In this document: one piece after another, positions 11,395 through 47,291 of the stretch
Numbering within the stretch: position 1 is the stretch's first letter
Layout: each line of letters opens with the position of its first letter
From: a virus
IMG/VR virus record: IMGVR_UViG_3300010354_000047
Coordinates: 32,001 to 96,000 of that record
Reading direction: 5' to 3' (one strand)
Length of the DNA stretch: 64,000 nt
The notes under the pieces: generated by a model
Seen by the model: the letters and a program-made list of their open reading frames with translations, nothing else
Database searches by the model: none
Told to the model about the DNA's origin: nothing
Made by a program: the position numbers and the translations under genes

Positions 11395-13979
11395 GTACTC
11401 CCAGTAACAAAGTGTTTACAAAACGTGTTCATATTTTTAAGGCAGGTCCTCAAATCTCTGCTCAAGGGGTAGAAAGAGAGTTCACTCCAGAAGACCTCCA
11501 ACAGGTTGTAGATTCTTACGACCCTAAAACCCACGAAGCTCCTTTAGTGATTGGGCATTCGGGGGATAATGATAGCGCACCATCTTTTGGATGGGTGAAG
11601 AAGTTTGTTCGGAAAGGTGAGGACCTTTACGCGGACGTCGATTTCACCGATGCAGCTAAAGATTTGGTGAAAGACGGCCACTACAGAAAAGTGTCTGTTT
11701 CATTTTATTCCCCTGAATCCCCTGTTAATCCTCATCAAGGCCACTGGAGTGCTCGTCACCTGGCCCTGTTAGGTGCTGCTCCACCCTCTGTAAAAGGTCT
11801 TGAAGCCTTCTCTTTCTCTGAGAAAGGAGTCTATGATTTTGCTACTACTTCTTCGATTGGTGAGATCTTTGACGAAGAACTCGGACCGACTCTTCTAATT
11901 GAGAGAAGCCCCTTAGAAATCTTGAAGGAAAAACTGCAAGAGGTCCGAGGGGACATGGACAACTCTCTCAAGGAACTAGAGGAAAACCAAGAAAATCAAT
12001 CCCAAGCAACTGCGGATGAAACAAGTCAACAATCAGCGGACGAAAAAACCGCACCCGAAAACCCTGCTCAACAATTTTCCGAAATGAAAAAGAAATTAGG
12101 GCGCGAAGGGGCCGAAGCCTCTGACTCCGCTCAGTCAATCGCAGACCTGGAAACTGAATTCCCAGAAGAAAAGTTTGAAGAAGGCGTCTCTCGCCGTGTG
12201 CGAAAGGGGGCCAACGGTCAAAAAGTTCAAGTCGTCGAACAAGTCTTCGAAGAAGACGATGAGATGTCTGAAGACCACAAAGAAATCCCCGAAGCCTTCA
12301 AAAAGAACATCGAAAAGATGAAGGCTAAAGCGAAAGGTGGACACAAAGCCGAAGCCGAAATGGAAGACGCAGACCACGGTGAACTTCCGCCAGCTCTTCG
12401 AAAGAACATGGAGAAGATGAAGGCAAAGAAGAAGATGCATGCGGAAGAGGAAGATGAGTCGGACGGAGAGTTCGCGGAAGTTTCCCACAAGACCGTGAGT
12501 AATCACAAACCTTCTTTCGGAAAGCATGCTCAAAAAGACGAAGAAGACCCAGCCGGACGTGGTAAAACTGGGCGTTCGACAAGCGACAGCTACGCTAATC
12601 GTCAGGCGGTTGGTGAGAGCGGAGAAGAAGATCGTGATACGATTGCCAAAAATGGCGAAGAAGACCTAGATCGTGTTCGAACTGCTAAAAGTGCTGAGGA
12701 AGACGCAGACCGCCTTAACACCGGTAAAGACTCCGAAGGTGACGACGACAGCGATGGCCGTTGGGCTGACCAGCCTGAAGGCAAGAGCCGCGCTCACAAC
12801 ATGGATCAATACGACGACGGAGAAGAAGGTCTTCCTCAAAGGAACAAACCCGGAGTCTCCGACGGAGATGAGCCAAGAGGTAGGGACGGAGGTCCAACTT
12901 CTTTCACGAGAAAGGTTGAAGAAGACCCTGATTCTGAGGACATTACGGTTCAACTCGAAAGCACAAAAGGAAACAAGGTTTCCCGAGTTCTTCACACGGC
13001 GTCTGGAGAAAAGAGGGCTCCTTTAAAGGGTGGCTCGATCTCCGACCATAGCGAAGAGTCTGACGGAGTCACAAGGAAGGCCAAAGAGGCAGCAATCTCT
13101 TCTGGTTCTGAGCCTCGCGGTCGGGATGATGGTCCAACCGAGTTCCCGGTTCGTTCCGAAGAAGACCCTGACGATATGGAACTGGCTGTCGATGTGGAAA
13201 GCATCGTTGACAATCCAAAAGTTCGAGTACTTCGCCAGAAGTCTGGAGATAAGGCGTCCGTTGACCACTCTGAAGAAGATATCTTAACCGATGACGACAT
13301 CGATGGGCTGATTGAGTCCATTCTTCAAGAGGTTTCCGAAGAAGACTTCGGTGAGAAAATGCCTTACACTAAGACGGGACTCGGTTCCACATATGGTTCC
13401 CGTAAGGCTAAACTCAAGTCCGAGGAAATGGATGAGGATGAGTACGAGGATGAAGAAGATGAGGAGGAGGATGAGGACGAAGAGTTCGCTGAAACTGAGT
13501 CCTTCTGCGGAACTGGTTCGATGGGCCAGTCTCGTTCCAAGGTCTATCCAGTGATGTTCGATGAGTTTCGCAAGCAACTCCACTCCCTTAAGAAGGAGAA
13601 TGAGAAACTCAGGAAGGAATACAAAGAGCACAAGGTTCGCAGCCGCAAAGAAAAAATTGCTGAGCAGGTGAACCAGTTGTATACCGAAGGTAAGATCACT
13701 GATGGTATTATTCCGCAAAGAGAGTTGCAGAACTACTGCGAAGGTCTCGAGTTCGGTACTCTCGAATTCTCCGAAGGGGAAACTCCTGCGTCCAAGCTGC
13801 TTCAACTCTTGGATCGCCTTCCGAACATGGTTTATTTCGGTGAAGTTGTTCAAGATGGCGTCTTTCAGGAAGATGACTTCGATCTAGATCCCCACACAAA
13901 AGCTCTCCGAATGGTTGAGAGCGGAGAGTGCTCAGACTACGTAGAAGCCATCAAACGCTGCATCGACTGGGGTTATTGA
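11391..13979 (+). CDS. prohead protease (Mu gpI-like) fused to long acidic scaffold region
   Basis: HEAPLVIGH, FGWVK, LYADVD, YRKVSVSFY, RHLALLGAAPPSVKGL, plus a C-terminal coiled coil. The start could be GTG 11412 based on spacing from GGGTAAA at 11376. Confidence 0.88.
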   Translation: MSTPSNKVFTKRVHIFKAGPQISAQGVEREFTPEDLQQVVDSYDPKTHEAPLVIGHSGDNDSAPSFGWVKKFVRKGEDLYADVDFTDAAKDLVKDGHYRKVSVSFYSPESPVNPHQGHWSARHLALLGAAPPSVKGLEAFSFSEKGVYDFATTSSIGEIFDEELGPTLLIERSPLEILKEKLQEVRGDMDNSLKELEENQENQSQATADETSQQSADEKTAPENPAQQFSEMKKKLGREGAEASDSAQSIADLETEFPEEKFEEGVSRRVRKGANGQKVQVVEQVFEEDDEMSEDHKEIPEAFKKNIEKMKAKAKGGHKAEAEMEDADHGELPPALRKNMEKMKAKKKMHAEEEDESDGEFAEVSHKTVSNHKPSFGKHAQKDEEDPAGRGKTGRSTSDSYANRQAVGESGEEDRDTIAKNGEEDLDRVRTAKSAEEDADRLNTGKDSEGDDDSDGRWADQPEGKSRAHNMDQYDDGEEGLPQRNKPGVSDGDEPRGRDGGPTSFTRKVEEDPDSEDITVQLESTKGNKVSRVLHTASGEKRAPLKGGSISDHSEESDGVTRKAKEAAISSGSEPRGRDDGPTEFPVRSEEDPDDMELAVDVESIVDNPKVRVLRQKSGDKASVDHSEEDILTDDDIDGLIESILQEVSEEDFGEKMPYTKTGLGSTYGSRKAKLKSEEMDEDEYEDEEDEEEDEDEEFAETESFCGTGSMGQSRSKVYPVMFDEFRKQLHSLKKENEKLRKEYKEHKVRSRKEKIAEQVNQLYTEGKITDGIIPQRELQNYCEGLEFGTLEFSEGETPASKLLQLLDRLPNMVYFGEVVQDGVFQEDDFDLDPHTKALRMVESGECSDYVEAIKRCIDWGY

Positions 13980-34481: not shown

Positions 34482-35271
34482 ATGCCCTATAGTCCTGAAC
34501 AACTTTTCTCCGTTCTGGGGTACTCCGCACGTGCTCTGGGTGCCTCTGACGGGGAAATCTACGAATTTGCACGCTGCATGCGACCCGATGGAACCTTCTA
34601 CGGAACGCGAGGAAAGTGTAAAAAAAAGGTTCGGAAGTTAACCCTGAGTCACAAGACAAAGGCCCTCAATCTGAAAGGAAGGTTCTAAAGGAAATGGTTA
34701 GGGCCGGGGGAAAGTTTCATCTTCCGTCCAGAGGAAAACCTGAAACACCCGACGAAGTTCAAGCTAGAAAAGCCAGAGTTGAGAAAGATCATGAGGCTAA
34801 GAAGAAACAAAAGGAGAGAATAGCAGAACAAGACGAAAGACACACAAAAATCGCAAAAGACTTATACGAACTGGGTGGCGGTGATTCTAAGGATGACAGT
34901 TTATATTCACGTAACCGGCGGAAGGGTATAAAAGAGGAACTTGACATTATTGGTAATGCAGGTCGTCAAGGTGCTCAATATCTTAAGAAGGGGATACTGC
35001 TGCTCTTCTTGAGCACGCAAGGAAGGTGTCCGCAGGAGGGGTGAAAACTCACGTTGAAAGCTTGGTAAAGGCCAAGAAAGAGGAACAGAAAGCTAGACTT
35101 AAGGAGGAAATAGCACGAAAGAAAGAAAGAGGTGATAGTCCTGAAGACATAGCTCAATACAAGGCAAACGAAAACTTTTATATGAAGAGGGAGCTAAAGA
35201 GAACAGCATATGATGCGGAAAGGGAGTGGAATGCCTTAGTCGCAATTGAAAGAGCTAGTCGAGGGAGGTGA
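34482..35271 (+). CDS. RCxRPDG-motif protein with basic helical payload; interrupted by two homopolymer frameshifts
   Basis: EFARCMRPDGTFYGTRGKCKK|GSE continues in the 34694 frame across an A8 run (34620-34627), then in the 35026 frame across a G4 run (34990-34993). Confidence 0.7.
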
Positions 35272-35322
35272 AACCAAAGGTCGCCTTTGATACTTTGGTT
35301 GTAGAGTAAAAGTTTGAGGTTT

Positions 35323-37153
35323 ATGAAATCTAAATTCTTGTGGCATAACTTTCGAGACTCTCGACATCTTAATGGAGAGGACGAGCGCGTCGATGGGAAT
35401 ATACGAAGGAATAGACTTGAAGGTCCTTCAAGCCCTTTACCTTCTAAAAGGGACTCGAGCAGAGAACCTTCCGCTAGGGAAGTAGAAAGGGCTAAAGAAG
35501 AAGCAGTAGGAGGAAAAAGGGACGAATGCAAAAAGGGGGAAGTCTTGCAGCGCTACTTGCATATACTATAATGACAAATGTTTAGTAGCTCTCCCAGCCC
35601 CCTTGAGTGAGGGATTAAGAAAAGTAATAGGCATTCTAGAAGAAGCTACAGGAAGAGGTATTTCAGACGATGAAGCTGGAACTATCTTTGAGAAGCATCT
35701 TAAGTTGCAAGATGAGATAAAGTTTGGGCCGAATAAAGAACTCGTGGTCCCAGACCCGAAAGATCCCGACAATCCTGCCAAGTTTAAGGTCAATCTGGAG
35801 TTATTCCCTAAGAAACTCCAAGCCGAGGTTCAAAGAGACACGGAAGAACTTAACTCTAGATTAGAGGAAGTCAGGTCTAAATACGGTAAGACCGAGGGTG
35901 ATAAAAGAATCTCGGAAATAGTTGGCATCATGGTGCCAACGACGATAGCAAGGGAGAGGGAGAAAATCTCATACACACCTCCTGAAGCATTGGAGTATAT
36001 CTACAAGAATAGGAAAACTTTCGAGAGAATGAACGACATATACGAAGAACTTTCCAAACTCCAGAAAGAAGGAAAATTGACCCCGGAGATTGTTAACGAG
36101 AGGATGAAGGAAATAAGTCAAACCTTGCGACCTAGAATGGGGGAGTGGTCCCAAGAAGAAATAGCTTTAGCGGCTTCATTGTTAACCCCCTTAGAAAGAA
36201 ACTTCTTTGGAAAGGCGGGTTCCCTTTCAGAAGGGGGAGGTCTATTTCGAGCTGGAGACGAACTCCCCTCTTCCTACGGCGATCTTAGTGCAGCTACAGA
36301 TGAGCAGCAAAGGGCACGAGTCTTATTGGGAGCCCGAATTATTCTTGAGTCAAACGGAAAAAACATCTACACCGGGCAACCTCTAAATGTCCTGGAGTCA
36401 GATTGGGAGCACATGATTTCATTTGAAGCTATTCGCAGGAATGCGGAGGTGTACCATAATATAGGGTTGGTGTCTAGTAGGGACAATGGTGGAAAGGCCG
36501 ACAAACCACCCTCTTGGTTGTATAATACAGGGAAAGGTGGTTACATGTCCGGAATGAAGTTTGACGATAACGGGAAGCTTACGCCAGAAAGTAGAGCAAA
36601 GTGGGAGGCTAAAGAGCGAGCTAAAGTAGAAGTTAAGGAGTTAAAGCGAAAAGGTTTTGAGCTCTCTTACTACCAAAGGGGGCAAGAAAGAGTCCAAGCT
36701 CTTCAAGAATTGGTAGCAATGGTTCAGAATTCTAAGTTAAGAAGTAAAGATAAACTCGATGTCCTCAATAAAGTTGCCTTAGGTATGTTGCTGGAGGGTG
36801 ATCCGAAGTTTGCAGCGACAGCTGGAGGGGGAATTCAGTCACATGGAAGAGCAGGCAAAAGATGGTATTACTTTGGTTATGATAACCCTGAGTTTTGCAG
36901 GTTTGTTTCCAATAAATTGCTAGAACTTGCTGCGAAAGGCGATTCCGAAGGAATCAAAAAAGTGGGAGAAATTATGGAAGCTGAAGTCAATGAGAAATTG
37001 AATCCCACGATTAAAGAGCAATTGGGAACTAACTACACATACAAAGGTAAACCTTCCTTTAAGTTGGGTGATGAGGGGACAGAGCAAGTGCGAGAAATCA
37101 TGGAAAAATTATCCAAACAAGCCATGGAGCGTATAAAACAGGAGATAGGCTAA
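35323..37153 (+). CDS. Cys-motif + HNH nuclease protein 1 (one frameshift at G5 run 35535-35539)
   Basis: Removing one G gives CKKGKSCSATCIYYNDKCL, collinear with paralogue 37210. HNH core: NIYTGQPL..DWEHMISF..NIGLVSSRDNGGKAD. Confidence 0.8.
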
Positions 37154-37209
37154 CTTTCCGCTCAGATTAAATTAGCGGGTAAAGTCTGTGAAGTCTGTGG
37201 TCCGTGAGG

Positions 37210-38826
37210 ATGAATCCATTGTTCAATTGGCATAACTTCTCCGACTCTCGAAAGTTGCAAGGGGATGATGCGAGAGTTGAAGATTTGGGTCGTCATCAGG
37301 GCCTCACCGGTGAATCCTCCCCAGTTCCTTCGAAAAAGGCTCCGAAAGAAGCTCCAAGCCCCGCTTCAGGAAAGACCCCTGGCCAGTCTTCGGGAAAGGG
37401 TTCTAAAAAGTGTTCGAAAGGAAAGTCTTGTAGTGCGACCTGCATTTACAAAGGCGATGATTGCCTAAAGGGTCTTGACCCTAAAGTTGCAGAAGGTTTG
37501 AACCGTCTCGCCCAAGAAATTAAAAAGTTTGCTGGCAGAGGAGGGGGAGAAGAAGAAGCCCTCGCCGCCGTTAGCCGACTTGAGTCCTCTGGAACCATTG
37601 AAGGGCAAGCTAAGAAGATCGCAGCGTCTCTTAACGCTATGGATGAAAAGTACCCTGATCCGGCAGAGAGGGATGCTCGAATCTCGCAAGTATTTGACTT
37701 AGTCCTCCCTGGAATGGCTAAGAAAGGAGATACGGGTGAAAAACAAGCATATTCCGAGGGCCAGCTTCAAAGGTTGATCAACAACAAAGATATTGAAGAG
37801 TTTGAGAAGGTGTATCAATCCGTTAAGAAAGGGGAGATTAAGAATCTAGAAGAGTTTGAAGCAAGAATGAGGCCTCTAGCTCAAAGAAGAAGGGTCAATG
37901 ACATTTCGGACGAGCAAGTGGACCTGGCAATGGCACTACTCCCAAAAGACTTGATTGCCTCACTGGGAAAGCAAGGGCGACCAGGGATTTGGGGGAAATG
38001 GGGGGAGAACCAAGATTCGCTCGCTTCCCCTGAGATGGGCCACACCCCTAAAAATGAGTCTGCCACGGGTCGAGCCAGGTTGATTCTAAGAATTGGCATG
38101 GAAGAGGGTATGAGGGATATGTACACAGGCCAAAGAGTTGGCTTTGGAGACATTGACCTGGAGCACACGATTCCCTTCGGAGTTGGAAAGTCCTTTGCCG
38201 AGCATGGTTCAAATTTCGGTTTGACAACGAGACTCAATAATCGGGCAAAGGGGGACATCAGTCCTGAAGAGTGGCGTTCAAAGGTCCTAAAGCAGTACGG
38301 GATTTCCGACGGGGCGATCACAGACAAAACTCGGGAGAGACTAAGGAAAGAGCAAGCAGAGGCTCAGAAATATAACGACGACCGAGCAAGGGTTTCTGGA
38401 GGGACCTCTCCCGAAACTGTTGCGTCTGTTTTCAAGGGTATTGATGAGTCCGCTAACAAACCATTAATTAAACAGAAACTAAAGAACAAAGCCCTTCAAT
38501 CTATGGCGGGTTACACTGAAACTTATCTTCACGGTTTTAGAGCGAATCGAGCTGGGGCAAGCCGCCGAGTCTATATATTTCGTGGAACAGAGCTCGGAGA
38601 AAGAGTCATGGACGCCGCCGCATCGCAGATTGACAAATTTCAAGCTACTGGTGATAAAGGAAAAGTCGAAAAAGCTTTGGAGATTCTCAGGTCGGCAGGA
38701 CCCAGAATCAACGAGGCCCTAGATAGCAAGTACGGAAACCAAAGGCTAGATAAAGATGCAACCGAGGCAGTGAATGTTGCCAACGACATTCGAAAACAGA
38801 TACTCGAAGAGATAAACGCTCTATGA
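37210..38826 (+). CDS. Cys-motif + HNH nuclease protein 2
   Basis: CSKGKSCSATCIYKGDDC; RDMYTGQ..DIDLEHTIPF..NFGLTTRLNNRAKGD; GGGTAAA at 37177. Confidence 0.85.
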   Translation: MNPLFNWHNFSDSRKLQGDDARVEDLGRHQGLTGESSPVPSKKAPKEAPSPASGKTPGQSSGKGSKKCSKGKSCSATCIYKGDDCLKGLDPKVAEGLNRLAQEIKKFAGRGGGEEEALAAVSRLESSGTIEGQAKKIAASLNAMDEKYPDPAERDARISQVFDLVLPGMAKKGDTGEKQAYSEGQLQRLINNKDIEEFEKVYQSVKKGEIKNLEEFEARMRPLAQRRRVNDISDEQVDLAMALLPKDLIASLGKQGRPGIWGKWGENQDSLASPEMGHTPKNESATGRARLILRIGMEEGMRDMYTGQRVGFGDIDLEHTIPFGVGKSFAEHGSNFGLTTRLNNRAKGDISPEEWRSKVLKQYGISDGAITDKTRERLRKEQAEAQKYNDDRARVSGGTSPETVASVFKGIDESANKPLIKQKLKNKALQSMAGYTETYLHGFRANRAGASRRVYIFRGTELGERVMDAAASQIDKFQATGDKGKVEKALEILRSAGPRINEALDSKYGNQRLDKDATEAVNVANDIRKQILEEINAL

Positions 38827-39158
38827 TAACTGACACACGATTCCCTCGAGAAGATAGATCAATCCTAGAACAGCGCCTTCCTCCGGGAACTTTGAGCCAC
38901 CCGCAAGCCTTTGGCGTCTGGTCTATCTTCTTGCAATGCGATGACCCTTCCGACGTAGCTCACAAGTTTCGATCTTATCGAGACAGCAATCTTTGTTCAA
39001 TCCCTCGGGGCAACCTTCGAGCTATGCGTGACACTCTTATTCTCTCGATGCGTGAAGAGAACAAGAAGCTAAAGGTCCCGAGAAAGGAGAAGAAGAAAGG
39101 AGTGCATTATATGGACTATGAGAATGAATGGGTGGACAAACCAAGAACAGGAGCCTAA
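38823..39158 (+). CDS. hypothetical protein coupled to HNH gene
   Basis: ATGA overlap with the upstream stop. Confidence 0.7.
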   Translation: MITDTRFPREDRSILEQRLPPGTLSHPQAFGVWSIFLQCDDPSDVAHKFRSYRDSNLCSIPRGNLRAMRDTLILSMREENKKLKVPRKEKKKGVHYMDYENEWVDKPRTGA

Positions 39159-39524
39159 ATGGAAAAAACTTCCACTAAAATAGAAGAGCTTTATAGCATA
39201 CCTTGTGGCCCCATGGATGTCTCCGCTGATTCAGTCTGCCGGCGCTCCTTAAGGGATTTTATGGATTCTCTTCTTGACAGATTGACTCGAGAAATAAACT
39301 CACATCCTCAGAAGACCCCCTCACTTCCAAAAGATCTTGAAGCTGGAGAAGGGGGAACAATCGTAGCAAAGGGGGCAGAAAATGAAGAGTCTCGAAAAGA
39401 GAGACTGATTCGAGAAGGAAAGCTCAGAGCGGACGTGTCAAATGAGGTTAGAAAATATCGAGAGCAGCTTCAGGGAAACAGTAAGATGCTTCAAGACATT
39501 TCGGGAAAGATTGAACCTTTTTGA
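39159..39524 (+). CDS. hypothetical protein
   Basis: 121-aa ORF with AGGAG RBS. Confidence 0.7.
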   Translation: MEKTSTKIEELYSIPCGPMDVSADSVCRRSLRDFMDSLLDRLTREINSHPQKTPSLPKDLEAGEGGTIVAKGAENEESRKERLIREGKLRADVSNEVRKYREQLQGNSKMLQDISGKIEPF

Positions 39525-39572
39525 TACCGACTGGCGAAAAGGGTAAAAGTTGAGCAGTTCACACCCTATGTA

Positions 39573-40205
39573 ATGAGCAACAGAATCAACGGAGACTTCA
39601 ACCAAGAAACTCTTGAAGCATTTCGTTCGGCTTATGCGAGTCGAGAGCTTGAACCGGAAGACCTGGAAATGGACCCGCGAACAGGCCTTCCTTCCAACGT
39701 CGTTCTCAACACATCCCCCTGGATCCAGCACACTGGACTCTGGAAAGCAAACGACGGAACCGATAGAAACTTTGTTCCTAACCAGGTTCTTATCCCTGGT
39801 GAAGAAGCCGAAGAGGATGAACTCGAAGAAATGACGGACGAAGAGCTTGAGAAGTTTCTTGAAGAGTTTTTATCAGAAGAGGGGCAGGACGAGGAGGTCT
39901 TCGAAGAAGACGACGACTTTTTCAGTTCATCTGATGATCAAGGGGGACTCTCTGACGAAGAGATTGACTCCCTTTTGGAAGAGATTCTAGAAGAAATGGA
40001 TCTAGAACCAGAGGACGAAGAGGAGGACCCGGATACTGAAATTTCGGATGAAGAGATCGATTCCTTGTTAGAAGAGATTCTGGAAGACTTCGACCCGGAA
40101 CCTGAAGACGAAGATGAGAACGACTCAGACAGTATTGGAATCTCAGATGAGATGATTGATGCACTGATAGCGGAACTTGAGGGGGAAACTCTTGACGAGG
40201 ATTGA
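39573..40205 (+). CDS. highly acidic protein with (I/L/M)(S/T)DEEIDSLLEEIL repeats
   Basis: About four imperfect repeats; GGGTAAA at 39541. Confidence 0.8.
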   Translation: MSNRINGDFNQETLEAFRSAYASRELEPEDLEMDPRTGLPSNVVLNTSPWIQHTGLWKANDGTDRNFVPNQVLIPGEEAEEDELEEMTDEELEKFLEEFLSEEGQDEEVFEEDDDFFSSSDDQGGLSDEEIDSLLEEILEEMDLEPEDEEEDPDTEISDEEIDSLLEEILEDFDPEPEDEDENDSDSIGISDEMIDALIAELEGETLDED

Positions 40206-40208
40206 TGG

Positions 40209-40880
40209 ATGAAGCCCCGAAAGTGTGTGAAAGGAAAAGCTTGCTCAGGAGCGTGCGTTGATCCGAATGAGGACTGTAGAAAAACATTTCCTCCCGGGTC
40301 TCAACCAGCTCTAAAGAAAGCAGTTCACATGATTGAACACATTGGCGTCAACGTTCTTTCCTGGAAAGTTGGAAAGACTCTGGGACCGATGGTTTCCGGA
40401 TTTCTAGAGAACTCTTACGGAGTTCCGAGAGAAAGTTCCCAAATGCTTTCTGAAGCTTTGGTTCAGGCTGTGACAGCCGTCGGCCTTAACTACAAGAAAA
40501 TCAAGTCCCCTGAAGACCTTGTTCGAAACCTCTTAATTGAATCCTCAGCAGCAATTCTTGGTAAGAGCGCCCACTCCGGGGCCGAAGAATTTCTGTCTTC
40601 TGCCGAAGGAAAGGAGATGTTAAAGAGTGCTCTTCCCCTTTTAGCTGGAAAGTTTACGGGGATTGGGGTTGCATTTGCGGGCTCCAGATTGCCCAGTCTT
40701 TCTCAGCTTTCCCGAATAGTCGCTGAACGTTCACAAAGCGACATTCAGAAACTTCGTGGCTTTATGAACCCACAGATGTTTAACGCATCGGAGGAGAAAA
40801 CTATTGAGGATATCTCCCAGACACTGACTGATATCTTCATTTTGTCATTACTAAGGTCTTCACGTCTTTTGGGTCAATGA
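40209..40880 (+). CDS. Cys-motif protein with hydrophobic helical payload
   Basis: CVKGKACSGACVDPNEDC N-terminus followed by Gly/Ala-rich helices. Confidence 0.75.
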   Translation: MKPRKCVKGKACSGACVDPNEDCRKTFPPGSQPALKKAVHMIEHIGVNVLSWKVGKTLGPMVSGFLENSYGVPRESSQMLSEALVQAVTAVGLNYKKIKSPEDLVRNLLIESSAAILGKSAHSGAEEFLSSAEGKEMLKSALPLLAGKFTGIGVAFAGSRLPSLSQLSRIVAERSQSDIQKLRGFMNPQMFNASEEKTIEDISQTLTDIFILSLLRSSRLLGQ

Positions 40881-41155
40881 AATTCTTCAATGAGAGGGCC
40901 TTCCTGGTTCGTTCTCTGATCGGCATCTTCGCCGTTCAATTTGTTACCGTGGGTTATCAAACCTTCCTCTGCCAACGCTCTGTGCTCACTGTGAAGGAGT
41001 CCGATCGCGTTTCCCTAATCTGCACGAATGCAGCAAACTCCTACAACGAAACCGGAAAACTGGCTTTGGCCACAATTTTGGCCCTTCTAGTTCCTTCTTC
41101 GAAGCAAGAGTCTCCCGAAAGTAGTGAAAAAGAGGATAATTCGAAGGAAGGGTAA
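40877..41155 (+). CDS. small two-TM membrane protein (holin-like or immunity-like)
   Basis: Hydrophobic segments FLVRSLIGIFAVQFVTVGY and LALATILALLVP. Confidence 0.65.
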   Translation: MKFFNERAFLVRSLIGIFAVQFVTVGYQTFLCQRSVLTVKESDRVSLICTNAANSYNETGKLALATILALLVPSSKQESPESSEKEDNSKEG

Positions 41156-41179
41156 AAGTAACGATATTGTTGACAAGGT

Positions 41180-42166
41180 ATGTACGGAGCCAACTTAGAC
41201 TTTTCGGGTGTTCTACTACCCGGCACTGGCGGTTCTTTGAACGCTGCGACTGCCATCACATCGGATAAACTACAAGAGATGAATCGTTCTGGAAAGAAGT
41301 GGGGAATCGACAAAGAAACCGGTAACCTAACATTTCACAACGAAGCCACACTAAAGGCAAATCAAAAGACAAGAAGCAACCGTGAAAACCTGATCAACAG
41401 AGATCGAGATGCTCATTCCGACGGCCAAGAGGCTATGAAGGAAATCTTTGGTCGAAAGAAGGCTCGTATGGAAGCATTTCGGGAGATTAAGAAAAAAGAG
41501 TACAACTTCGCAGACGACACAGAAATGATGTCGATGCCCCAACCTTTCTCCCACAAAGAGGCCAAGGGTTGCTCAGCATCGTGCAAAGGTCCTGGAAAGT
41601 GCAGTTGTGATTCCTGCAAGAAGTCCCTCTATGACTCTAACTACAGGGAGTGGTCAACTAAGAAGAGAGAGAAGCTTCAAAAAGGTGAAATCAAAGGTGA
41701 ATTTGCCGGAAAAGGAATGTCTTTTCCGATTGCGAGTCCGAAAGATGTGGCCGCTGCGTGGGCTTCTGTGGGAAGGACTGAAAATCCTCAGGAAGTGATG
41801 GCCAACATAATTCGAATCTCAAAGAAGTTCGGCTGGGAGTCCGGCTTACCTCAAACTGTTAGAGACCGTCTGAATGAAGGAAAGTCGGGACTGCCCTCCA
41901 CTAATTTTCGCGAATGGTCTTCGGATAAGCGCAAGAAACTCTCTGAAGGTGACCTCAGAGGGGAGTTCGCTGGCCCAGGAATGTCCTTTCCGATCTCAAG
42001 CGCCGAAGATGTCTCCGCTGCCTGGTCTTCAGTAGGTCGCGCCGCCAATCCAAGAAAAGTGATGGCCGAGATCATTCGCATTGCGAAAAAGTTCGGTTGG
42101 GAGTCCGGTCTCCCCGAGACCGTAAAACAAAGACTTAACGAAGGAAAGTCAGGTCTACCGGAGTAA
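41180..42166 (+). CDS. putative internal head protein with two tandem DUF6582-like repeats
   Basis: REWS..KR.KL..G...GEFAG.GMSFPI.S..DV.AAW.SVGR..NP..VMA.IIRI.KKFGWESGLP occurs twice; GGGTAAA at 41150. Confidence 0.75.
   Translation: MYGANLDFSGVLLPGTGGSLNAATAITSDKLQEMNRSGKKWGIDKETGNLTFHNEATLKANQKTRSNRENLINRDRDAHSDGQEAMKEIFGRKKARMEAFREIKKKEYNFADDTEMMSMPQPFSHKEAKGCSASCKGPGKCSCDSCKKSLYDSNYREWSTKKREKLQKGEIKGEFAGKGMSFPIASPKDVAAAWASVGRTENPQEVMANIIRISKKFGWESGLPQTVRDRLNEGKSGLPSTNFREWSSDKRKKLSEGDLRGEFAGPGMSFPISSAEDVSAAWSSVGRAANPRKVMAEIIRIAKKFGWESGLPETVKQRLNEGKSGLPE
41638..42163 (+). repeat. tandem ~79-codon direct repeat (2 copies) inside CDS
   Basis: Near-identical protein repeats starting NYREWS and NFREWS. 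Confidence 0.85.
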
Positions 42167-42169
42167 GAA

Positions 42170-42541
42170 ATGGGTGTAGAGTGGGTTATTGCCGTATTCG
42201 GCTTGGTTATAAGCGCAGCTGTATCGGCAACTGGTGGAGCTTTCTGGATTCAATTAAAGGGGTCGGAGAGAATCGACAAAATTAAAAGAGCATCCGACGA
42301 CCGCCTCGAAACTATGAGGAAAGCTTCAGACGAAAGAGTTGATCGACTGATTTCAGAAAACAAGTCACAAATGGAGATTCTTCTTTCACATGTTCAGAAA
42401 GTTGAGAACGTTCTAAATGACATGAGAGCTGAGCTTCCCACAAAATACGTCCTTCGAGAGGACTTTCTTCGTCTAGTGGAAAAAGTGGAAGAGCTTCGAA
42501 TCGATTCTTACCGTCCACGGGAACAGAGAAAAGATGCTTGA
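42170..42541 (+). CDS. membrane-anchored coiled-coil protein (holin-like)
   Basis: N-terminal TM helix, coiled coil, ELPTKYVLREDF motif. Confidence 0.65.
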   Translation: MGVEWVIAVFGLVISAAVSATGGAFWIQLKGSERIDKIKRASDDRLETMRKASDERVDRLISENKSQMEILLSHVQKVENVLNDMRAELPTKYVLREDFLRLVEKVEELRIDSYRPREQRKDA

Positions 42542-43046
42542 CTACGATTGGTCTCGACTTCAAAGCCTAGGTTTTGACACAAACTTTATCGAGAAGTCCC
42601 TTCCGGAAACCTATCGAAAAGGACTGACTAAGGAAGAGCAGGAGATTGCGAAAAAGGAAGCAAAAGATACTATGAAGAAGGCGGAAGAGGGAAAGGTTTC
42701 CTCTAAGGAACTCTACGCCGATTGGGAATCCGATAAAAGGTACAGAAAACGAAAGAAGAAGATCCCGCTTTCTCCCGCAACAAAAGCTTTTCACAAAGAC
42801 TTCGCAGAGGCAAAGTCCGGAGTTAGCAAATCTCTTCAAGAAAAGTCCAAGAAGTCTGGTATACCAGTGGGGGTCCTGAGGAAAGTCTTTCAAAGGGGTA
42901 TGGCCGCCTGGCGTTCCGGTCACCGGCCTGGTGTCGCCCCACAACAATGGGCTCACGCTCGCGTAAATTCCTTCATCACAGGAAAGGGAAAGGCTCGACA
43001 GGCTGACGAAGATCTGTGGAAGAAGGCGAAGGGTAAAAGAGCTTAG
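42534..43046 (+). CDS. basic protein with DUF5824-like domain
   Basis: KKSGIPVGVLRKVFQRGMAAWRSGHRPGVAPQQWAHARVNSF. Confidence 0.75.
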   Translation: MLDYDWSRLQSLGFDTNFIEKSLPETYRKGLTKEEQEIAKKEAKDTMKKAEEGKVSSKELYADWESDKRYRKRKKKIPLSPATKAFHKDFAEAKSGVSKSLQEKSKKSGIPVGVLRKVFQRGMAAWRSGHRPGVAPQQWAHARVNSFITGKGKARQADEDLWKKAKGKRA

Positions 43047-43061
43047 TCCGCTTTCAGTAAA

Positions 43062-43982
43062 ATGCCACACTGGGGATCCTTTTCTCCCGACTCCTATGAG
43101 TCTTTTCTGAACAAAGTCGATAATCCTGTCGACTATATGGTTGTAGCGCCTGCACTTGCACCACGGGCCGCTACCAACCCTTCCTCTTTTATGATGGATG
43201 AACAAGAAGATGACGAGGGAGACATGTATGATTGGGAAGATGAAGGTTACGAAGATGAAGAAGACATTGAGCCAAATGCTGGAATGGCTATGAGCCAGTT
43301 GCGGTCAATGGCTGAAGACATCATGTCTATCCTCAGTGAAATGACTCCTTACGATAATCTTGAGCCCTGGGTTGCTGCCAAGATTACAATGAGTAAACAA
43401 AACATTTCCGCCGTCGCTGACTACCTCCGCTTTGGTTCAGACTTCTCCGAAGGGGAATTTGACTTTGCCCGATGTCAAAGACCCGACGGAAGCACCTATG
43501 GTAGCAGAGGAAAATGCAGGAAGGGGAGCGAAGTGTCGGCCGTGACTGAAGAGGAACCGAAACCGAAAACCAAAAAGAAGAAAGATGATCGATCCGCAAG
43601 CCCTGTTCCACCTTTTGAAGATGTGAAAGAGCTCACAGAGAAGGCAAAGGGTTTTACATATGGGAAATCTTGGACAAAAGACCATCAGGAAGTTTGGAAT
43701 CGCATTTTGGCGTCTCCGGACACTAAGACATTAGGATCACTCACAAGAAAACTCAATAAAGAAGTCTTTGATGATAGCGAGTACGACGTTAGTGCCGGTT
43801 TTCTAAAGGGGGCTCTGAAGACAATGAAAGAATGGCTCGAAGCTAACGGGAGGTCCGGAGTTGGTGCAGCGAAGGAAGCTCGAATTGCCGCAATGACGCC
43901 TGAAGAGCGTAAGAGGGCTGCGTCTGCTGAAAGAGTTGAAAGGGGAATAAGGGCAGGGGTTGTAAAGGGGAGAATGATATAA
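43062..43982 (+). CDS. modular protein: leader + MAMSQL..NLEPWVAAKIT domain + RCxRPDG motif + payload
   Basis: DFARCQRPDGSTYGSRGKCRKGSE; GGGTAAA at 43031. Confidence 0.8.
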   Translation: MPHWGSFSPDSYESFLNKVDNPVDYMVVAPALAPRAATNPSSFMMDEQEDDEGDMYDWEDEGYEDEEDIEPNAGMAMSQLRSMAEDIMSILSEMTPYDNLEPWVAAKITMSKQNISAVADYLRFGSDFSEGEFDFARCQRPDGSTYGSRGKCRKGSEVSAVTEEEPKPKTKKKKDDRSASPVPPFEDVKELTEKAKGFTYGKSWTKDHQEVWNRILASPDTKTLGSLTRKLNKEVFDDSEYDVSAGFLKGALKTMKEWLEANGRSGVGAAKEARIAAMTPEERKRAASAERVERGIRAGVVKGRMI

Positions 43983-44080
43983 TGAATCTCTTGAGCAATT
44001 ACGATTGGGGCCTTCACAAGAGTTTAGGGTTTGACCTGACCTTTGTAGAAAATTTGAAGCGGAATCTAAAAGCAAGGTGA
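43982..44080 (+). CDS. 32-aa micro-ORF paralogous to the N-terminus of the 42534 protein
   Basis: MNLLSNYDWGLHKSLGFDLTFVENLKRNLKAR vs MLDYDWSRLQSLGFDTNFIEK; TAATG coupling; fills the intergenic gap. Confidence 0.7.
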   Translation: MNLLSNYDWGLHKSLGFDLTFVENLKRNLKAR

Positions 44081-44083
44081 TTT

Positions 44084-44434
44084 ATGTTCGGTAGCTTTCC
44101 TGAAGACATCCTGAGTCAGTTTCAAAGAGACTACGCAGAGCGCTTTGACAAAGAAGATCTTGAGTGCAACAAACCTCGGTCAACTCCGAGCCACCCTAGC
44201 AGCTCACATATCGTGAAAGCTTGCTACCCTGGGGCTCCTGAAGGAGGTAAACTAATACGCTTTGGTCAACAAGGCGTTAAAGGTTCTCCCAAGAAAGAGG
44301 GAGAATCCGAAGCCTATCGTAAGAGGCGTGAATCCTTTAAGGCGAGACACGCAAAGAATATAGCGAAAGGGAAGTCCTCTGCTGCCTACTGGGCGGACAT
44401 TGTGAAATGGAGCGAACCCGATTTTGAGGGGTAA
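44084..44434 (+). CDS. DUF6321-like basic protein with GSF leader
   Basis: TPSHPSSSHIVKAC..KLIRFGQQGV..RRESFKARHAKNIAKGKSSAAYWA. Confidence 0.8.
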   Translation: MFGSFPEDILSQFQRDYAERFDKEDLECNKPRSTPSHPSSSHIVKACYPGAPEGGKLIRFGQQGVKGSPKKEGESEAYRKRRESFKARHAKNIAKGKSSAAYWADIVKWSEPDFEG

Positions 44435-44458
44435 TTGCTCTTTTATTATTGTGCTAAA

Positions 44459-44908
44459 ATGATCAGAAATTTCAACCTTCCTTGTGTGGACAACCTTCGA
44501 GAGGGAATCGACTACCGACTAGTGGAGTGGGATTTCGCATCCCAGCAACCATCCCGAACTCCTGGGACTCCTTGCCCTCCTGGAGAAAAGGTTGTTTTTG
44601 GAGTTTGTCGCAAGGTCGGTGACTCAGGGGAAAAAGACTTTGACTCCGAAAAGAAAACTTCCCAAGAATCTCAGCTTGAAGAGGAAGCCACACGTCAAGG
44701 TAAGAAAGTTTCTACCAAGGAAGAGGCTACCGCCGCTAACGTAAAAGGCTTTGAGACAGGTGGGAAGAAGTATGGCTGGGCAATTAAAAACGGAAAACCT
44801 GTCATTGTTGAATGGGGTTCCGTAGCAGGTACAAAGAAGAAGGGTAAGGAAAAAACAACTGCCCCTGAAGCACCAGCAGCAGCTACCACAACTCCGGCTC
44901 CTAAGTAA
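44459..44908 (+). CDS. hypothetical modular protein (CPPGEKVVFGVCRK motif)
   Basis: ATG 44459 lies 30 nt after the GGGTAAT variant. Confidence 0.7.
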   Translation: MIRNFNLPCVDNLREGIDYRLVEWDFASQQPSRTPGTPCPPGEKVVFGVCRKVGDSGEKDFDSEKKTSQESQLEEEATRQGKKVSTKEEATAANVKGFETGGKKYGWAIKNGKPVIVEWGSVAGTKKKGKEKTTAPEAPAAATTTPAPK

Positions 44909-44943
44909 TTGAAAGGGTAAATAACTTTATAGACTAAACTTAT

Positions 44944-45789
44944 ATGGACCTTCCCACTAAGATTTCCGCCGATTACTTTCGAGGAACAGTTATGGAACCC
45001 GAACGAGTTTCCCCTTTTCGTTCAAATTACACCGAGTACGAGCGGCTAGGAATGAAGCACGAGGAGCTCTCAAAAAGGATTGAGGCTCTTCAAGATAAGA
45101 TGAAGCTCTCTCGTCAAAACGGCGCCTTCCAAAACCTTCAGATGCAGATGTCTGAGGTGAAACAACTCGTCAAGGATCGAGAGGAAATCGATGCTAAGAT
45201 GTCGACACTTGACTTGGCAAGAAAGAAGGACGACGATTACAGAGCTGCTGCGGGCTACGAAGCATCCTACGGTGAGTGCCTGGAATCTTTTGACTCCCGT
45301 GTCGAAAAGCTCGAAAGTCTTCTAGAAGAGTTCTCTGAGCTCGCTGCGAGCGAAAACTTTGACTTCACTCGTTGCGTTCGCCCCGATGGTTCTGTATATG
45401 GGACAAGAGGAAAGTGCAAGAAAGGTTCTGAAACTAGCGCCCCGGTCAAAGAAGTAAAAGTGTCATCAAAAGCTCTCAGACTTTCTGTAAGGGAGAAGTC
45501 TTCACACCTAAATGAAGTTAGAAAGCAGTTATCAGCTGGTGAAAAGAAGTTCAGGGCGATGGTCAAGGAGGCCAAAAAGAATCCCTCCCCTGAAAAGAAA
45601 GAGGAGCTGAAACTGGCCCAGAAAGCTTTAGCCCAGAAACAAAGAGAGGTTGCCAGAGCAGAAAGAGAAGCAGAGAAAGCCCTAAGACAGTGGAGTTCTG
45701 CTCGCAAAAAAGAAGAAAGAGCGAAGATGAACCCTGCGCAACTGCAGTCTGAAAGAAAGCTAGATAGAATTATTCGGGAACGAGGCTGA
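44944..45789 (+). CDS. coiled-coil + RCxRPDG motif + basic helical payload
   Basis: DFTRCVRPDGSVYGTRGKCKKGSE; GGGTAAA at 44915. Confidence 0.8.
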   Translation: MDLPTKISADYFRGTVMEPERVSPFRSNYTEYERLGMKHEELSKRIEALQDKMKLSRQNGAFQNLQMQMSEVKQLVKDREEIDAKMSTLDLARKKDDDYRAAAGYEASYGECLESFDSRVEKLESLLEEFSELAASENFDFTRCVRPDGSVYGTRGKCKKGSETSAPVKEVKVSSKALRLSVREKSSHLNEVRKQLSAGEKKFRAMVKEAKKNPSPEKKEELKLAQKALAQKQREVARAEREAEKALRQWSSARKKEERAKMNPAQLQSERKLDRIIRERG

Positions 45790-45795
45790 CCTGAA

Positions 45796-47121
45796 ATGGC
45801 ACGTTGTAACAAAGGAAAAAGTTGCAAGGGTACGTGCATCCAGAGAAGCGATAATTGCTTGGCCCCACTTGGAAAAAACCTCTCCAAACAACTAGATGTG
45901 GCCTCAGAAAAGATGGAGGGCCTCGGAGATATCTTTCTTCGAAAAATTGTTACTCCCGGAAAGCCCCCCTCACCTCCTGCCCCCCTTGTAAACAAAGAAA
46001 CCAACAAGCAAGTTCAAAAACTTGTAGACCAACTCGGACTCGGCCCTCTGACCGTTAAAGAAGTTGGCAATAGTTTCGAAGTCTACAAGAGAGAAGCTCT
46101 GAGGCAGCTTAAGGAACTGGAGAATAAACCAAATAAGACGAGCGCAGATAGAACAAAAGAAAACCAAATTCGAGATGCTTTGCTAGCGGTTTGGGAGAAT
46201 AAGACCAATGTTAGCCGCGGAATGTTAATCGATCGCCTGGACGCCCTAGACTTCGATAACACATTTAAGCCAAACTATAAGACAGGAAAGTACGACTGGG
46301 ACAGTTCCTACGCCTCCGGTTCAAGACACCTTGGTTCAGGTGGCTTCGCGAGTGTAGTGGCTTCTAAAGAGCCTCCCCCGGTTGTAGTTAAGAGAGGGGA
46401 AGTCAGCGAAAATGAAATTCAGATCTTGAAAAAACTGAAAGGCAAGGATCTATCCCCTGAGCTAATAGCTGCGGAGATGGACACAAAGTCGGGGATAGAG
46501 AGTAAAGAAGCGGACATTGATTTTTACTCGGGTCGAATCGCCATGTCCCGCGTCTCCGGGAAAGCTGCAGAGGAATTCAATACGTACAACGACCGTGTTG
46601 GTGGCACAACTGTCGGGGACTCTTACTGGGCTCTTCGCCGTCGACTCCATAGCAATGGGGTAGCCCACAACGATGCGCACATCGGAAACGTTCTGATCGA
46701 CGATTCCGGAAAGTCTCGCTTTGTAGATTTCGGGATTTCCCAGGACGACCCCCGCGCTGCCCTCTCTGAAGCCATTGGAGTCTATGCGAATCGCAGATTT
46801 CTTCCCGCAGGTTCTGTAACAAAGTCCCCCGTAGATAGACAGTCGGGTGACTGGCAAGGAAGACGCTTCGACCAGTTCACCGAGCCTTTATCTAAGGCGA
46901 CGGAACCTAGCAATAAATCTAACTATGCCAGAGTAATCCAGAATCGGACAAAGGTTTACCAGGCCCTAAAAGAGCTAGGTTTATCTAACGACGATATAGC
47001 GGAAGTTGTGATCCACGGTATCAGGAGACCCCTTAGCTCTTTCAATAGTGGACCCTGGGGAAAGATTAGTAAAGAAGAAGCCATGAAGTTGATTCAGCTC
47101 GTTTACCAAGGTGTGGAATAA
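45796..47121 (+). CDS. Cys-motif + protein kinase-like domain
   Basis: CNKGKSCKGTCIQRSDNC; LGSGGFASV, VVVK, HNDAHIGNVL, VDFG. Confidence 0.85.
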   Translation: MARCNKGKSCKGTCIQRSDNCLAPLGKNLSKQLDVASEKMEGLGDIFLRKIVTPGKPPSPPAPLVNKETNKQVQKLVDQLGLGPLTVKEVGNSFEVYKREALRQLKELENKPNKTSADRTKENQIRDALLAVWENKTNVSRGMLIDRLDALDFDNTFKPNYKTGKYDWDSSYASGSRHLGSGGFASVVASKEPPPVVVKRGEVSENEIQILKKLKGKDLSPELIAAEMDTKSGIESKEADIDFYSGRIAMSRVSGKAAEEFNTYNDRVGGTTVGDSYWALRRRLHSNGVAHNDAHIGNVLIDDSGKSRFVDFGISQDDPRAALSEAIGVYANRRFLPAGSVTKSPVDRQSGDWQGRRFDQFTEPLSKATEPSNKSNYARVIQNRTKVYQALKELGLSNDDIAEVVIHGIRRPLSSFNSGPWGKISKEEAMKLIQLVYQGVE

Positions 47122-47291
47122 TGTCAAAAGAAAACGACCAGAAGTATCTAGACTTGATGTCCCTGTACAAAAAGCTTCGGAGAAGCCCAAAAACAGACGC
47201 CCAGTCCCAAAAAGTCCTTGACAAAGCACTGAAATTCTCTAAGGATAACGCCATTAGCCCCGAAGCTCTAGAAGCTGCTAGATACTTTTAA
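47121..47291 (+). CDS. 56-aa protein coupled to the kinase gene (not in ORF track)
   Basis: TAATG overlap; MSKENDQKYLDLMSLYKKLRR...EALEAARYF. Confidence 0.7.
   Translation: MSKENDQKYLDLMSLYKKLRRSPKTDAQSQKVLDKALKFSKDNAISPEALEAARYF

Follow-up and report, generated by a model that had tools for sequence, protein, structure and literature searches.

Two unannotated modules on diverse enzymes of an S-CBWM1-like cyanomyovirus as candidate address tags for virion cargo

The window analysed in this study is a stretch of 64,000 nucleotides (nt) comprising bases 32001-96000 of a 136,373-bp virus record in IMG/VR. Its products include a tail sheath, a baseplate wedge, a head maturation protease, a head-tail adaptor, tail fibres, TerL and a PhoH-like protein. 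Among GenBank phages, the window is closest to Synechococcus phage S-CBWM1 (genus Aokuangvirus), a cyanomyovirus that is not of the T4 type and whose TerL is 58% identical across 88% of the query. Between PhoH and a baseplate/fibre protein of 1,587 amino acids (aa) lies a locus syntenic with S-CBWM1 gp105-gp116, in which several genes carry one of two recurrent modules, here called tag A and tag B. The sequence is best explained by a conserved gene block of an S-CBWM1-like cyanomyovirus, reaching from TerL/PhoH to the large baseplate/fibre protein. As far as the searches reach, tags A and B are two undescribed and unannotated domain families.

The strict tag-A pattern, C-x-KGK-x-C-x3-C-[IV]-x6-C, was back-translated into DNA and matches the window three times, always on the forward strand, and not once in 100 shuffles of it. 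A six-frame regular-expression search recovered the identical three sites. With three copies of either tag in the window against none expected, an origin of tag A or tag B by chance or from low-complexity sequence was ruled out. A fourth copy of tag A is split: the frame 35314-35538 ends ...EEAVGGKRDECKKG (= ...AVGGKRDECKKG), and the frame from 35540, which reads KSCSATCIYYNDKCLVALPAPLSEGLRKV... (= KSCSATCIYYNDKCLVALP...), runs on into the open reading frame (ORF) 35603-37153. The two frames are parted by one surplus base in the a5g5 run 35530-35539. An earlier note on this DNA had described the same tag on four genes, which agrees with three intact copies and a fourth interrupted by a single base. 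A fifth copy lies outside the window on the minus strand, where it heads a kinase. The three intact copies diverge at many third codon (synonymous) positions, which argues that they are old and that the motif has been maintained by selection, rather than that they are recent duplicates. An N-terminal module of ~45-65 aa has this motif as its core and includes a conserved leader, ...T.SQI..AK..AVGG.RKR-C.KGK[SN]C[SG]A.CI.....C[LM]V[DE][LI]P.

A scan of IMG/VR with the strict tag-A DNA pattern matched at least 118 stretches. Among the matches listed there are 126 tag-A copies, 37 with fewer than 60 residues from the first cysteine to the C terminus and 89 with a longer payload, and the C-terminal regions of these 89 proteins fall into 28 clusters. 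When the 89 were searched against Pfam together with four proteins from the window, the 93 sequences gave matches to Pkinase (15), ABC1 (11), APH (11), HNH_4 (5), ART-PolyVal (2), ADPrib_exo_Tox (2) and, once each, to a lambda-type portal, Zeta_toxin, SNase, DnaJ and LRAT. A 42-column profile of tag A returned 79 matches in a word-indexed protein search, including 1,400-aa lipase-domain proteins, DnaJ, NUDIX and kinases. An exhaustive search of 1.84 billion representatives with the profile gave 1,101 proteins at an expectation value (E)<=1e-3, 122 of them at E<=1e-10. Among the best 150 of the 1,101, 95 have a single tag, and in 93 of the 95 it starts no further in than residue 100 (median 30). 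The others fall into two size classes: small proteins of 70-190 aa carry two or three copies, and giants of 1,000-3,600 aa carry two to six. In the giants, each tag is followed by a hydrophobic stretch and by domains of lipases or NlpC-type hydrolases; by the strict pattern, the giant P0081 has zero copies.

Within 93 single-tag representatives, Pfam recognised Pkinase in 8 and ADP-ribosyltransferase families in 3-5, and 13 belong to the HNH-like family described below. About 28 of the 93 have a C-terminal domain in common, the printed members of which show YRG..., SWS.S and E.E, presumably the R-S-E signature of ADP-ribosyltransferases. P0101, from the wider BLAST cluster, has a Pfam match to ADPrib_exo_Tox. 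Some contigs hold three to five tagged genes in tandem. Judged by sequence, payloads are swapped across the tag family as a whole, and the claim of one tag on unrelated payloads is supported by the 28 C-terminal clusters as well as by the 1,101 representative clusters.

Neither Pfam nor NCBIfam holds a family that covers tag A, even in P0001 with its ~9-10 copies, and the tag-A profile had no match among PDB sequences at E<=10, in agreement with the statement that the tag is not a recognised family. A faint match to DUF5874 (E 0.65) failed to reproduce on the window's own genome and was rejected. A tblastn search of 50,697 GenBank phage records with the 42-aa tag returned S-CBWM1 only, plus chance-level rows. 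The literature searched held no description of the tag, which is not proof that it is unpublished. When the isolated tag was modelled by AlphaFold2 from a 47-segment alignment, a β-hairpin, a loop with the fourth cysteine and a helix were obtained at a predicted local distance difference test score (pLDDT) of ~82-86. The hairpin consists of residues 32-35 and 38-41 of the 70-aa segment and brackets Cys35 and Cys39. By this model, the four-cysteine core is a β-hairpin knuckle that leads into a helix, and its cysteines may bind zinc or form disulfides.

In the window, each tag protein has a single recognisable payload. The products of 37204-38826 and 35603-37153 both belong to an HNH-like family, in a 27-sequence alignment of which H321 and N337 are invariant and D305 and E320 near-invariant. 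Modelled by AlphaFold2 with the family alignment, the former product has a mean pLDDT of 77.3 and a mostly helical body with a ββα unit, formed by strands 317-321 and 338-342 and flanking helices at pLDDT >85. Foldseek with the full-length model ranked Cas9 HNH domains best, at weak E values of 0.13-0.6 (best E 0.13, probability 1.00), and found no relative of the helical body; Pfam HNH_4 did not match either window HNH-like protein alone. The D...(E/D)H...N...N core on a ββα fold is that of a Cas9-type HNH_4 domain, and the proteins are predicted nucleases. The kinase encoded at 45796-47121 shows the motifs GSGGFASV...VVVK, with the Gly-rich loop, HNDAHIGN and DFG of the kinase-like superfamily, and matches Pfam Pkinase at E 4.7e-5, below the curated cut-off, and a PHROG kinase at E 9.6e-7. 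The product of 40209-40880 matched no family in the Pfam and PHROG scans, and its counterpart is missing at the syntenic position in S-CBWM1. The payloads named in the earlier note, namely an HNH nuclease twice, a helical region and a protein kinase, are thus borne out, the nuclease and the kinase as predictions.

A second recurrent module, tag B, had been missed by the earlier note. It follows the pattern [FY][DE]F.RC.RP[DN]G..YG..GKC.KG (consensus FDFxRCxRPDGxxYGxxGKCxKG), has two cysteines and is unrelated to tag A; seven copies occur in the genome. The pattern matched 101 viral stretches, many of them on contigs that also bear tag A, and one locus (L169) has seven copies in 14 kb. In 110 unique proteins of at least 120 aa, tag B starts at a median residue of 36. 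Pfam searches of 112 tag-B proteins gave ADPrib_exo_Tox (8), ART (7), DUF6496 (7), Pkinase (7) and CTP_transf_like (3). The window's own genome has tag B on an NMNAT-like protein and one kinase and tag A on two other kinases. Because kinases are headed by either tag in one genome, both modules appear to serve identical enzyme classes.

The profile search for tag A found five proteins in S-CBWM1 and zero in S-TIM5, S-CREM2 and S-CRM01. The five are gp106 (HNH-like), gp113 (RIO-like kinase, with the tag just 5' of the annotated start), gp161 (ChoK-like kinase), gp162 (APH-like kinase) and gp174, which is encoded between the protease and the major capsid protein and annotated as 'virion structural protein'. 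Tag B is found in S-CBWM1 on gp39, the NMNAT, and an NMNAT query against GenBank phage records returned S-CBWM1 only. In the passages available from PMC10665884, the S-CBWM1 virion proteome is reported to include APH, ChoK and Rio2 kinases as well as the NMNAT, and for the NMNAT this is repeated in a passage of PMC9602691. By these partial sources and the GenBank labels, four of the five tag-A proteins and the sole tag-B protein are reported or labelled as virion-associated, gp106 being the remaining one. The virion kinases named in the same passages do not include gp173, an untagged PknB-like kinase. The tag-HNH family is also remotely homologous to ORF12 of S-CREM2 (hhalign probability 88.7%, E 2.6e-6, 165 columns), which was found in virions with 28 peptides, alongside the virion kinase ORF14 and the cytidylyltransferase ORF154. 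In another contig (L072:1685-4066), a single protein joins a lambda-family portal through an acidic linker to tag A (aa 521) and a C-terminal HELSH (HExxH) domain, a fusion that would place tag A inside a head.

The balance of these observations tips slightly towards tags A and B being address tags for virion cargo. They would be exchangeable heads placed on enzymes directed at macromolecules or metabolites of the host, namely the HNH nuclease, protein kinases and NMNAT of this phage and ADP-ribosyltransferases, lipases and others in its relatives. Through the tags, non-structural enzymes would be incorporated into the virion, probably as the tags attach to a component inside the prohead before the DNA is packaged, and the tagged enzymes would enter the host with the DNA and act ahead of phage gene expression. 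Packaging caused by the tag, its metal binding and cleavage, co-injection and late expression are what we infer. That the two unrelated modules form a general cargo-loading system throughout this large, aquatic and mostly uncultured phage clade, so that any enzyme fused to them would be packaged and injected, is a possible but rather doubtful extension.

Several points weigh against a role as address tags. The window phage is known here from its genes alone and the virion evidence is that of relatives; for S-CBWM1 it comes from two citing papers, available in part, and GenBank labels only. A passage of PMC9602691 cautions that abundant proteins can persist in CsCl-purified preparations. Two of the tagged S-CBWM1 kinases, gp161 and gp162, are encoded outside the structural block. 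Tag A is missing from the virion kinases and HNH protein of S-CREM2, S-CRM01 and S-TIM5, and the tag is thus dispensable for packaging these enzyme classes in other lineages. Tag B of two window proteins is as far as ~140 aa from the N terminus. The AlphaFold2 confidence for tag A, which is ~82-86 for the isolated segment, is <50 in the full protein, and a fold search with the isolated model returned one chain at Z 2.0 of 48,161 and no structural relative. To these points are added the bacterial copies of the tag core.

Bacterial occurrence of the Cys module is a further feature that the earlier note had not seen. A scan of bacterial genomes with the tag-A pattern gave at least 120 stretches (loci L216-L335), mostly from Alphaproteobacteria and Gammaproteobacteria. 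Among 118 bacterial matches listed, 101 are small proteins with the module at the C terminus, and 17 extend at least 60 aa past the tag, which in most of them stands directly behind a signal peptide. The small proteins end in a nine-cysteine block, CC..C.KGK.CG.SCI.....C...GCAC(D/N)G, that holds the tag core (e.g. L221, L222 and L258); from their sequences, these proteins, mostly of Alphaproteobacteria, are probably secreted. Clusters of secreted nucleases, SH3_3 proteins and lipoproteins also carry the module. A feature search of the ESM Atlas gave no usable match, and its structure rows, short and of low template-modelling (TM) score, were leads only, to bacterial lipoprotein, SNase and SH3_3 clusters. 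Since the module occurs in secreted bacterial proteins, it is not capsid-specific, and its core would appear to be a general extracytoplasmic mini-domain of bacteria that was recruited by phages. The suggestion of a virion-cargo tag made in the earlier note receives indirect support from the tagged S-CBWM1 enzymes, which are reported in virions by partial sources.

The main rival explanation, though an unlikely one, is that the tags are working parts of the enzymes themselves. Tag A would then be a zinc- or disulfide-stabilised knuckle with a basic face (RKR-C-KGK) that docks kinases, ADP-ribosyltransferases and nucleases onto nucleic acid or a common host target, and presence in virions, where seen, would be due to something else. 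The basic residues beside the invariant four-cysteine core are consistent with this, as are the occurrence of the core on bacterial secreted nucleases and other proteins that are never encapsidated and the tagless virion kinases of S-CREM2, S-CRM01 and S-TIM5. However, a docking domain is not expected to be N-terminal in nearly all cases (93 of 95), the substrates of NMNAT, lipase, NlpC/LRAT, DnaJ and HNH payloads are too different, and two unrelated modules are interchangeable on identical enzyme classes. The tagged set of S-CBWM1 also coincides with the virion-associated enzymes reported in the available passages. Alternatively, and improbably, tag A could be an extracytoplasmic, disulfide-stabilised domain that marks ejectosome-type proteins acting in the periplasm or membranes at genome ejection, rather than cytoplasmic effectors. 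The kinase, the HNH nuclease and the NMNAT of the genome have cytoplasmic substrates, and the window tag proteins possess neither a signal peptide nor a clear transmembrane segment; these findings speak against an envelope role, which would otherwise suit the bacterial copies behind signal peptides or lipoboxes and the multi-tag giants with a hydrophobic segment and a lipase or NlpC-type hydrolase after each tag.

The arrangement of the genes bears on two further explanations. Three tagged genes are followed by a small ORF, as the earlier note had pointed out, which overlaps their stop codons (by 4, 4 and 1 nt), and with a constant N terminus, a variable C terminus and Zeta-toxin, ADP-ribosyltransferase, nuclease and lipase payloads in relatives, the locus could be read as a polymorphic toxin-immunity system for phage or bacterial competition, each toxin being neutralised by its small downstream ORF. 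This is very improbable. Comparable overlaps are common throughout the window (e.g. 4073, 4967, 11391, 22226, 27873 and 28262). The protein encoded at 38823-39158 is among the best conserved in the block, with 69% mean column identity and 22 invariant columns in 14 sequences, far above its neighbours and in contrast to HNH proteins that are ~17-28% identical to that of the window, with one exception at 62%. Its homologue stands directly 3' of the tag-HNH gene in 11 related loci. As a conserved core gene it does not resemble an immunity gene, and its product may have a core function in regulation or packaging in these phages. In S-CBWM1, gp109, the relative of the second small ORF, comes after the acidic gp108, and a tagged gene between the two is absent. 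The order TerL, PhoH, tag-HNH and small ORF is kept, with PhoH adjacent in 22 loci and TerL upstream in 23, and this fixed order argues that the HNH gene is core to the phage group and not a swappable cassette. The analogy with polymorphic toxins and their small partners drawn in the earlier note was therefore not upheld, and the comparison of C-termini and neighbours across tag-profile matches that it had proposed gave a divided answer, the C-termini being diverse but the architecture and position of the tag-HNH gene fixed. The same gene order could mean that the two HNH-like genes, and only these, belong to the DNA-packaging machinery and lie beside TerL for that reason; HNH proteins assist terminase in HK97-like phages. 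Such a role is hardly probable, as the second S-CBWM1 copy, gp174, is far from TerL, between protease and capsid gene, and labelled a virion protein, the remote S-CREM2 homologue is found in virions and has its gene beside that of a virion kinase, and the proteins, at 450-620 aa with a long helical body, are unlike the small terminase-associated HNH proteins. A complex prediction for the HNH body (aa 90-540) with the 111-aa ORF product scored 0.00 and carries no weight either way.

A role as address tags has a precedent in T4, where the internal proteins IPI-III and Alt, otherwise unrelated, have a short N-terminal element in common, become part of the prohead and reach the host together with the DNA. 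One of them, Alt, is an ADP-ribosyltransferase, like ~28 of the 93 tag-A representatives if judged by their signature. The T4 capsid targeting signal has ~10 residues and is removed by the prohead protease; the modules described here show no sequence likeness to it, are 25-65 aa long, contain cysteines and are probably folded. Polymorphic toxins, including the MuF-headed toxins of phages, combine a constant N-terminal domain with swappable C-terminal enzymes. A conserved N-terminal domain with diverse C-terminal domains is also found here (28 clusters in the 89 proteins listed), but a cognate, co-varying downstream immunity gene is not. No MuF (Phage_Mu_F) domain occurs in the Pfam tables of 93, 112 and 93 tagged proteins (for the alignments, among the 25 commonest families listed) or in the window proteins. 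The virion enzymes of the cyanomyoviruses S-CBWM1 and S-CREM2 are similar in kind, with protein kinases, an NMNAT/cytidylyltransferase and a Cas9-HNH-like nuclease. S-CBWM1 shares the syntenic block gp105-gp116, and its kinases and NMNAT reported from virions in the passages available are the tagged ones; those published passages do not mention a common N-terminal module.

S-CREM2, S-CRM01 and S-TIM5 differ in having no tag A. The virion kinases and the HNH protein of this T4-like cluster C, gp14 and gp12 of S-CREM2 and gp130 of S-CRM01 (L212:277-2544, L213:76-2541 and L214:105-2714), lack both tags and show another repeated N-terminal motif of their own, A..KA...GL.YRGFGYW.D..TGK / GLVSDGHG.Y.D..T.K.VAR, possibly a third, lineage-specific tag. 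Polyvalent proteins, as described by Iyer et al. 2017 (PMC5512222) in the passages available, have kinase, ADP-ribosyltransferase, peptidase and nuclease domains predicted to travel with the invading DNA. The words 'cysteine', 'zinc ribbon' and 'ZnR' do not occur in the text of PMC5512222, so the module is not described there in those words. ART-PolyVal is found in 2 of the 93 tag-A proteins listed, and the giants with two to six tags and several enzyme domains resemble polyvalent proteins; these carry two to fifteen effector domains per polypeptide, in contrast to one payload in the proteins of the window.

Phages carry enzymes into cells, as exemplified by T4 Alt and the internal proteins, the N4 RNA polymerase and the virion kinases of cyanophages, but to our knowledge the choice of cargo is unexplained for most of them. 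Packaged and injected enzymes, capsid-targeting signals and cyanophage virion kinases are thus already known, and the new part is the two modules, a sequence signature recognisable in >1,000 protein clusters that coincides, according to the partial sources, with particle enzymes in the one cultured phage bearing it. If the modules are a loading signal, the injected 'first-strike' proteome of uncultured phages would be predictable from sequence alone, and the recurrence of kinases, ADP-ribosyltransferases, nucleases and NAD-synthesis enzymes in cyanophage virions would be explained. The two-module system would then amount to a portable counterpart, of domain size, to the T4 capsid targeting sequence, with tag A recruited from a bacterial extracytoplasmic mini-domain. 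It could also be used to load proteins of choice into phage particles, a possible protein-packaging tool.

Table 1. Genes and motifs of the tagged locus, with positions in the window
Feature	Position	Strand	Remarks
Tag-B gene, apparently broken	34482-35271	+	ORF 34482-34688 carries FARCMRPDGTFYGTRGKC at 34575-34619
Tag A and HNH-like region, paralogue 1	35314-37153	+	Split; WHNFRDSRHL leader; AVGGKRDE-CKKG, then across the break KSCSATCIYYNDKC; 39% identity to P0151 over 505 aa
Tag A, helical region and HNH (ββα-Me, Cas9-HNH-like), 540 aa	37204-38826	+	Tag at 37411-37464, aa 70-87; leader of ~69 aa
111-aa ORF, homologue of S-CBWM1 gp107	38823-39158	+	Overlaps HNH gene by 4 nt
Acidic repeat protein, gp108-like	39573-40205	+	Repeated SDEEIDSLLEEILE units; kept 3' of the tag-HNH gene in at least 10 loci
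Tag A and 200-aa Gly/Ala-rich helical region	40209-40880	+	Tag at 40224-40277, aa 6-23; 44%-identical relative P0140
92-aa hydrophobic ORF, gp109-like	40877-41155	+	Overlaps by 4 nt
Tag-B protein, 306 aa	43062-43982	+	Tag at 43473-43517, aa 138-152
Tag-B protein, 281 aa	44944-45789	+	Tag at 45373-45417, aa 144-158; Lys/Glu-rich tail
Tag A and protein kinase	45796-47121	+	Tag at 45805-45858, aa 4-21; counterpart of S-CBWM1 gp113
56-aa ORF	47121-47291	+	Overlaps by 1 nt; weak homologue of S-CBWM1 gp114 (25% identity, E 1e-5)
GGGTAAA(A) in the locus, six sites	37177 (37177-37183), 39541, 41150, 43031, 44915, 47294	+	Candidate promoter element
GGGTAAA before structural genes	e.g. 5324, 9727, 14702, 18869, 56507		

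The heptamer GGGTAAA occurs 20 times in the window, with 7.9 matches expected and 14 in the largest shuffle, and 17 of the matches lie on the forward strand between 3298 and 56513. Genome-wide, 16 of 29 forward copies are in the structural half. Most sites are found ~20-50 nt 5' of start codons, in the locus and before structural genes. The enrichment and the similar distance to starts in both groups confirm that, as had been claimed, the locus and the structural genes have this motif in common. GGGTAAA(A) is a candidate promoter element of the phage group and may be its late promoter.

Two tagged genes less than 1 kb apart are broken at homopolymer runs, the A8 run 34620-34627 and the a5g5 run 35530-35539. 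In the first, ORF 34482-34688 stops shortly past the A8 run and the next frame reads KKGSEVNPES..., which fits the tag-B consensus GKCKKGSE and suggests a frame break in this tag-B gene. Homology gives no support for the membership of ORFs 34694-35044 and 35026-35271 in the broken gene, since relatives match the tag region only. The breaks were checked in assembled contigs only. The probable source run has also been assembled as a Logan contig, which agrees base for base at both breaks with a word depth of 14.8x, and a second run covers 157 bases. The agreement of the Logan contig is no independent confirmation, yet it lowers the chance of a simple slip in assembly. Gene 35314-37153 may be decaying or dependent on a frameshift, and both breaks may reflect pseudogenes, slippage sites or a common sequencing bias.

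Further proteins of the window have features of their own. The product of 38823-39158 ends in a basic tail and matches no family. At 11391-13979, an 862-aa ORF contains the head maturation protease domain (PHROG 976, aa 7-366); S-CBWM1 gp170 has only 480 aa, and the extra length of the window ORF may be a fused scaffold-like region. The 328-aa protein encoded at 41180-42166 has a weak match to DUF6582 and a Cys-rich stretch, CSASCKGPGKCSCDSCKK, and contains two internal repeats of ~75 aa, EWS..KR.KL..G...GEFAG.GMSFPI...DV.AAW.SVGR..NP..VMA.IIRI.KKFGWESGLP.

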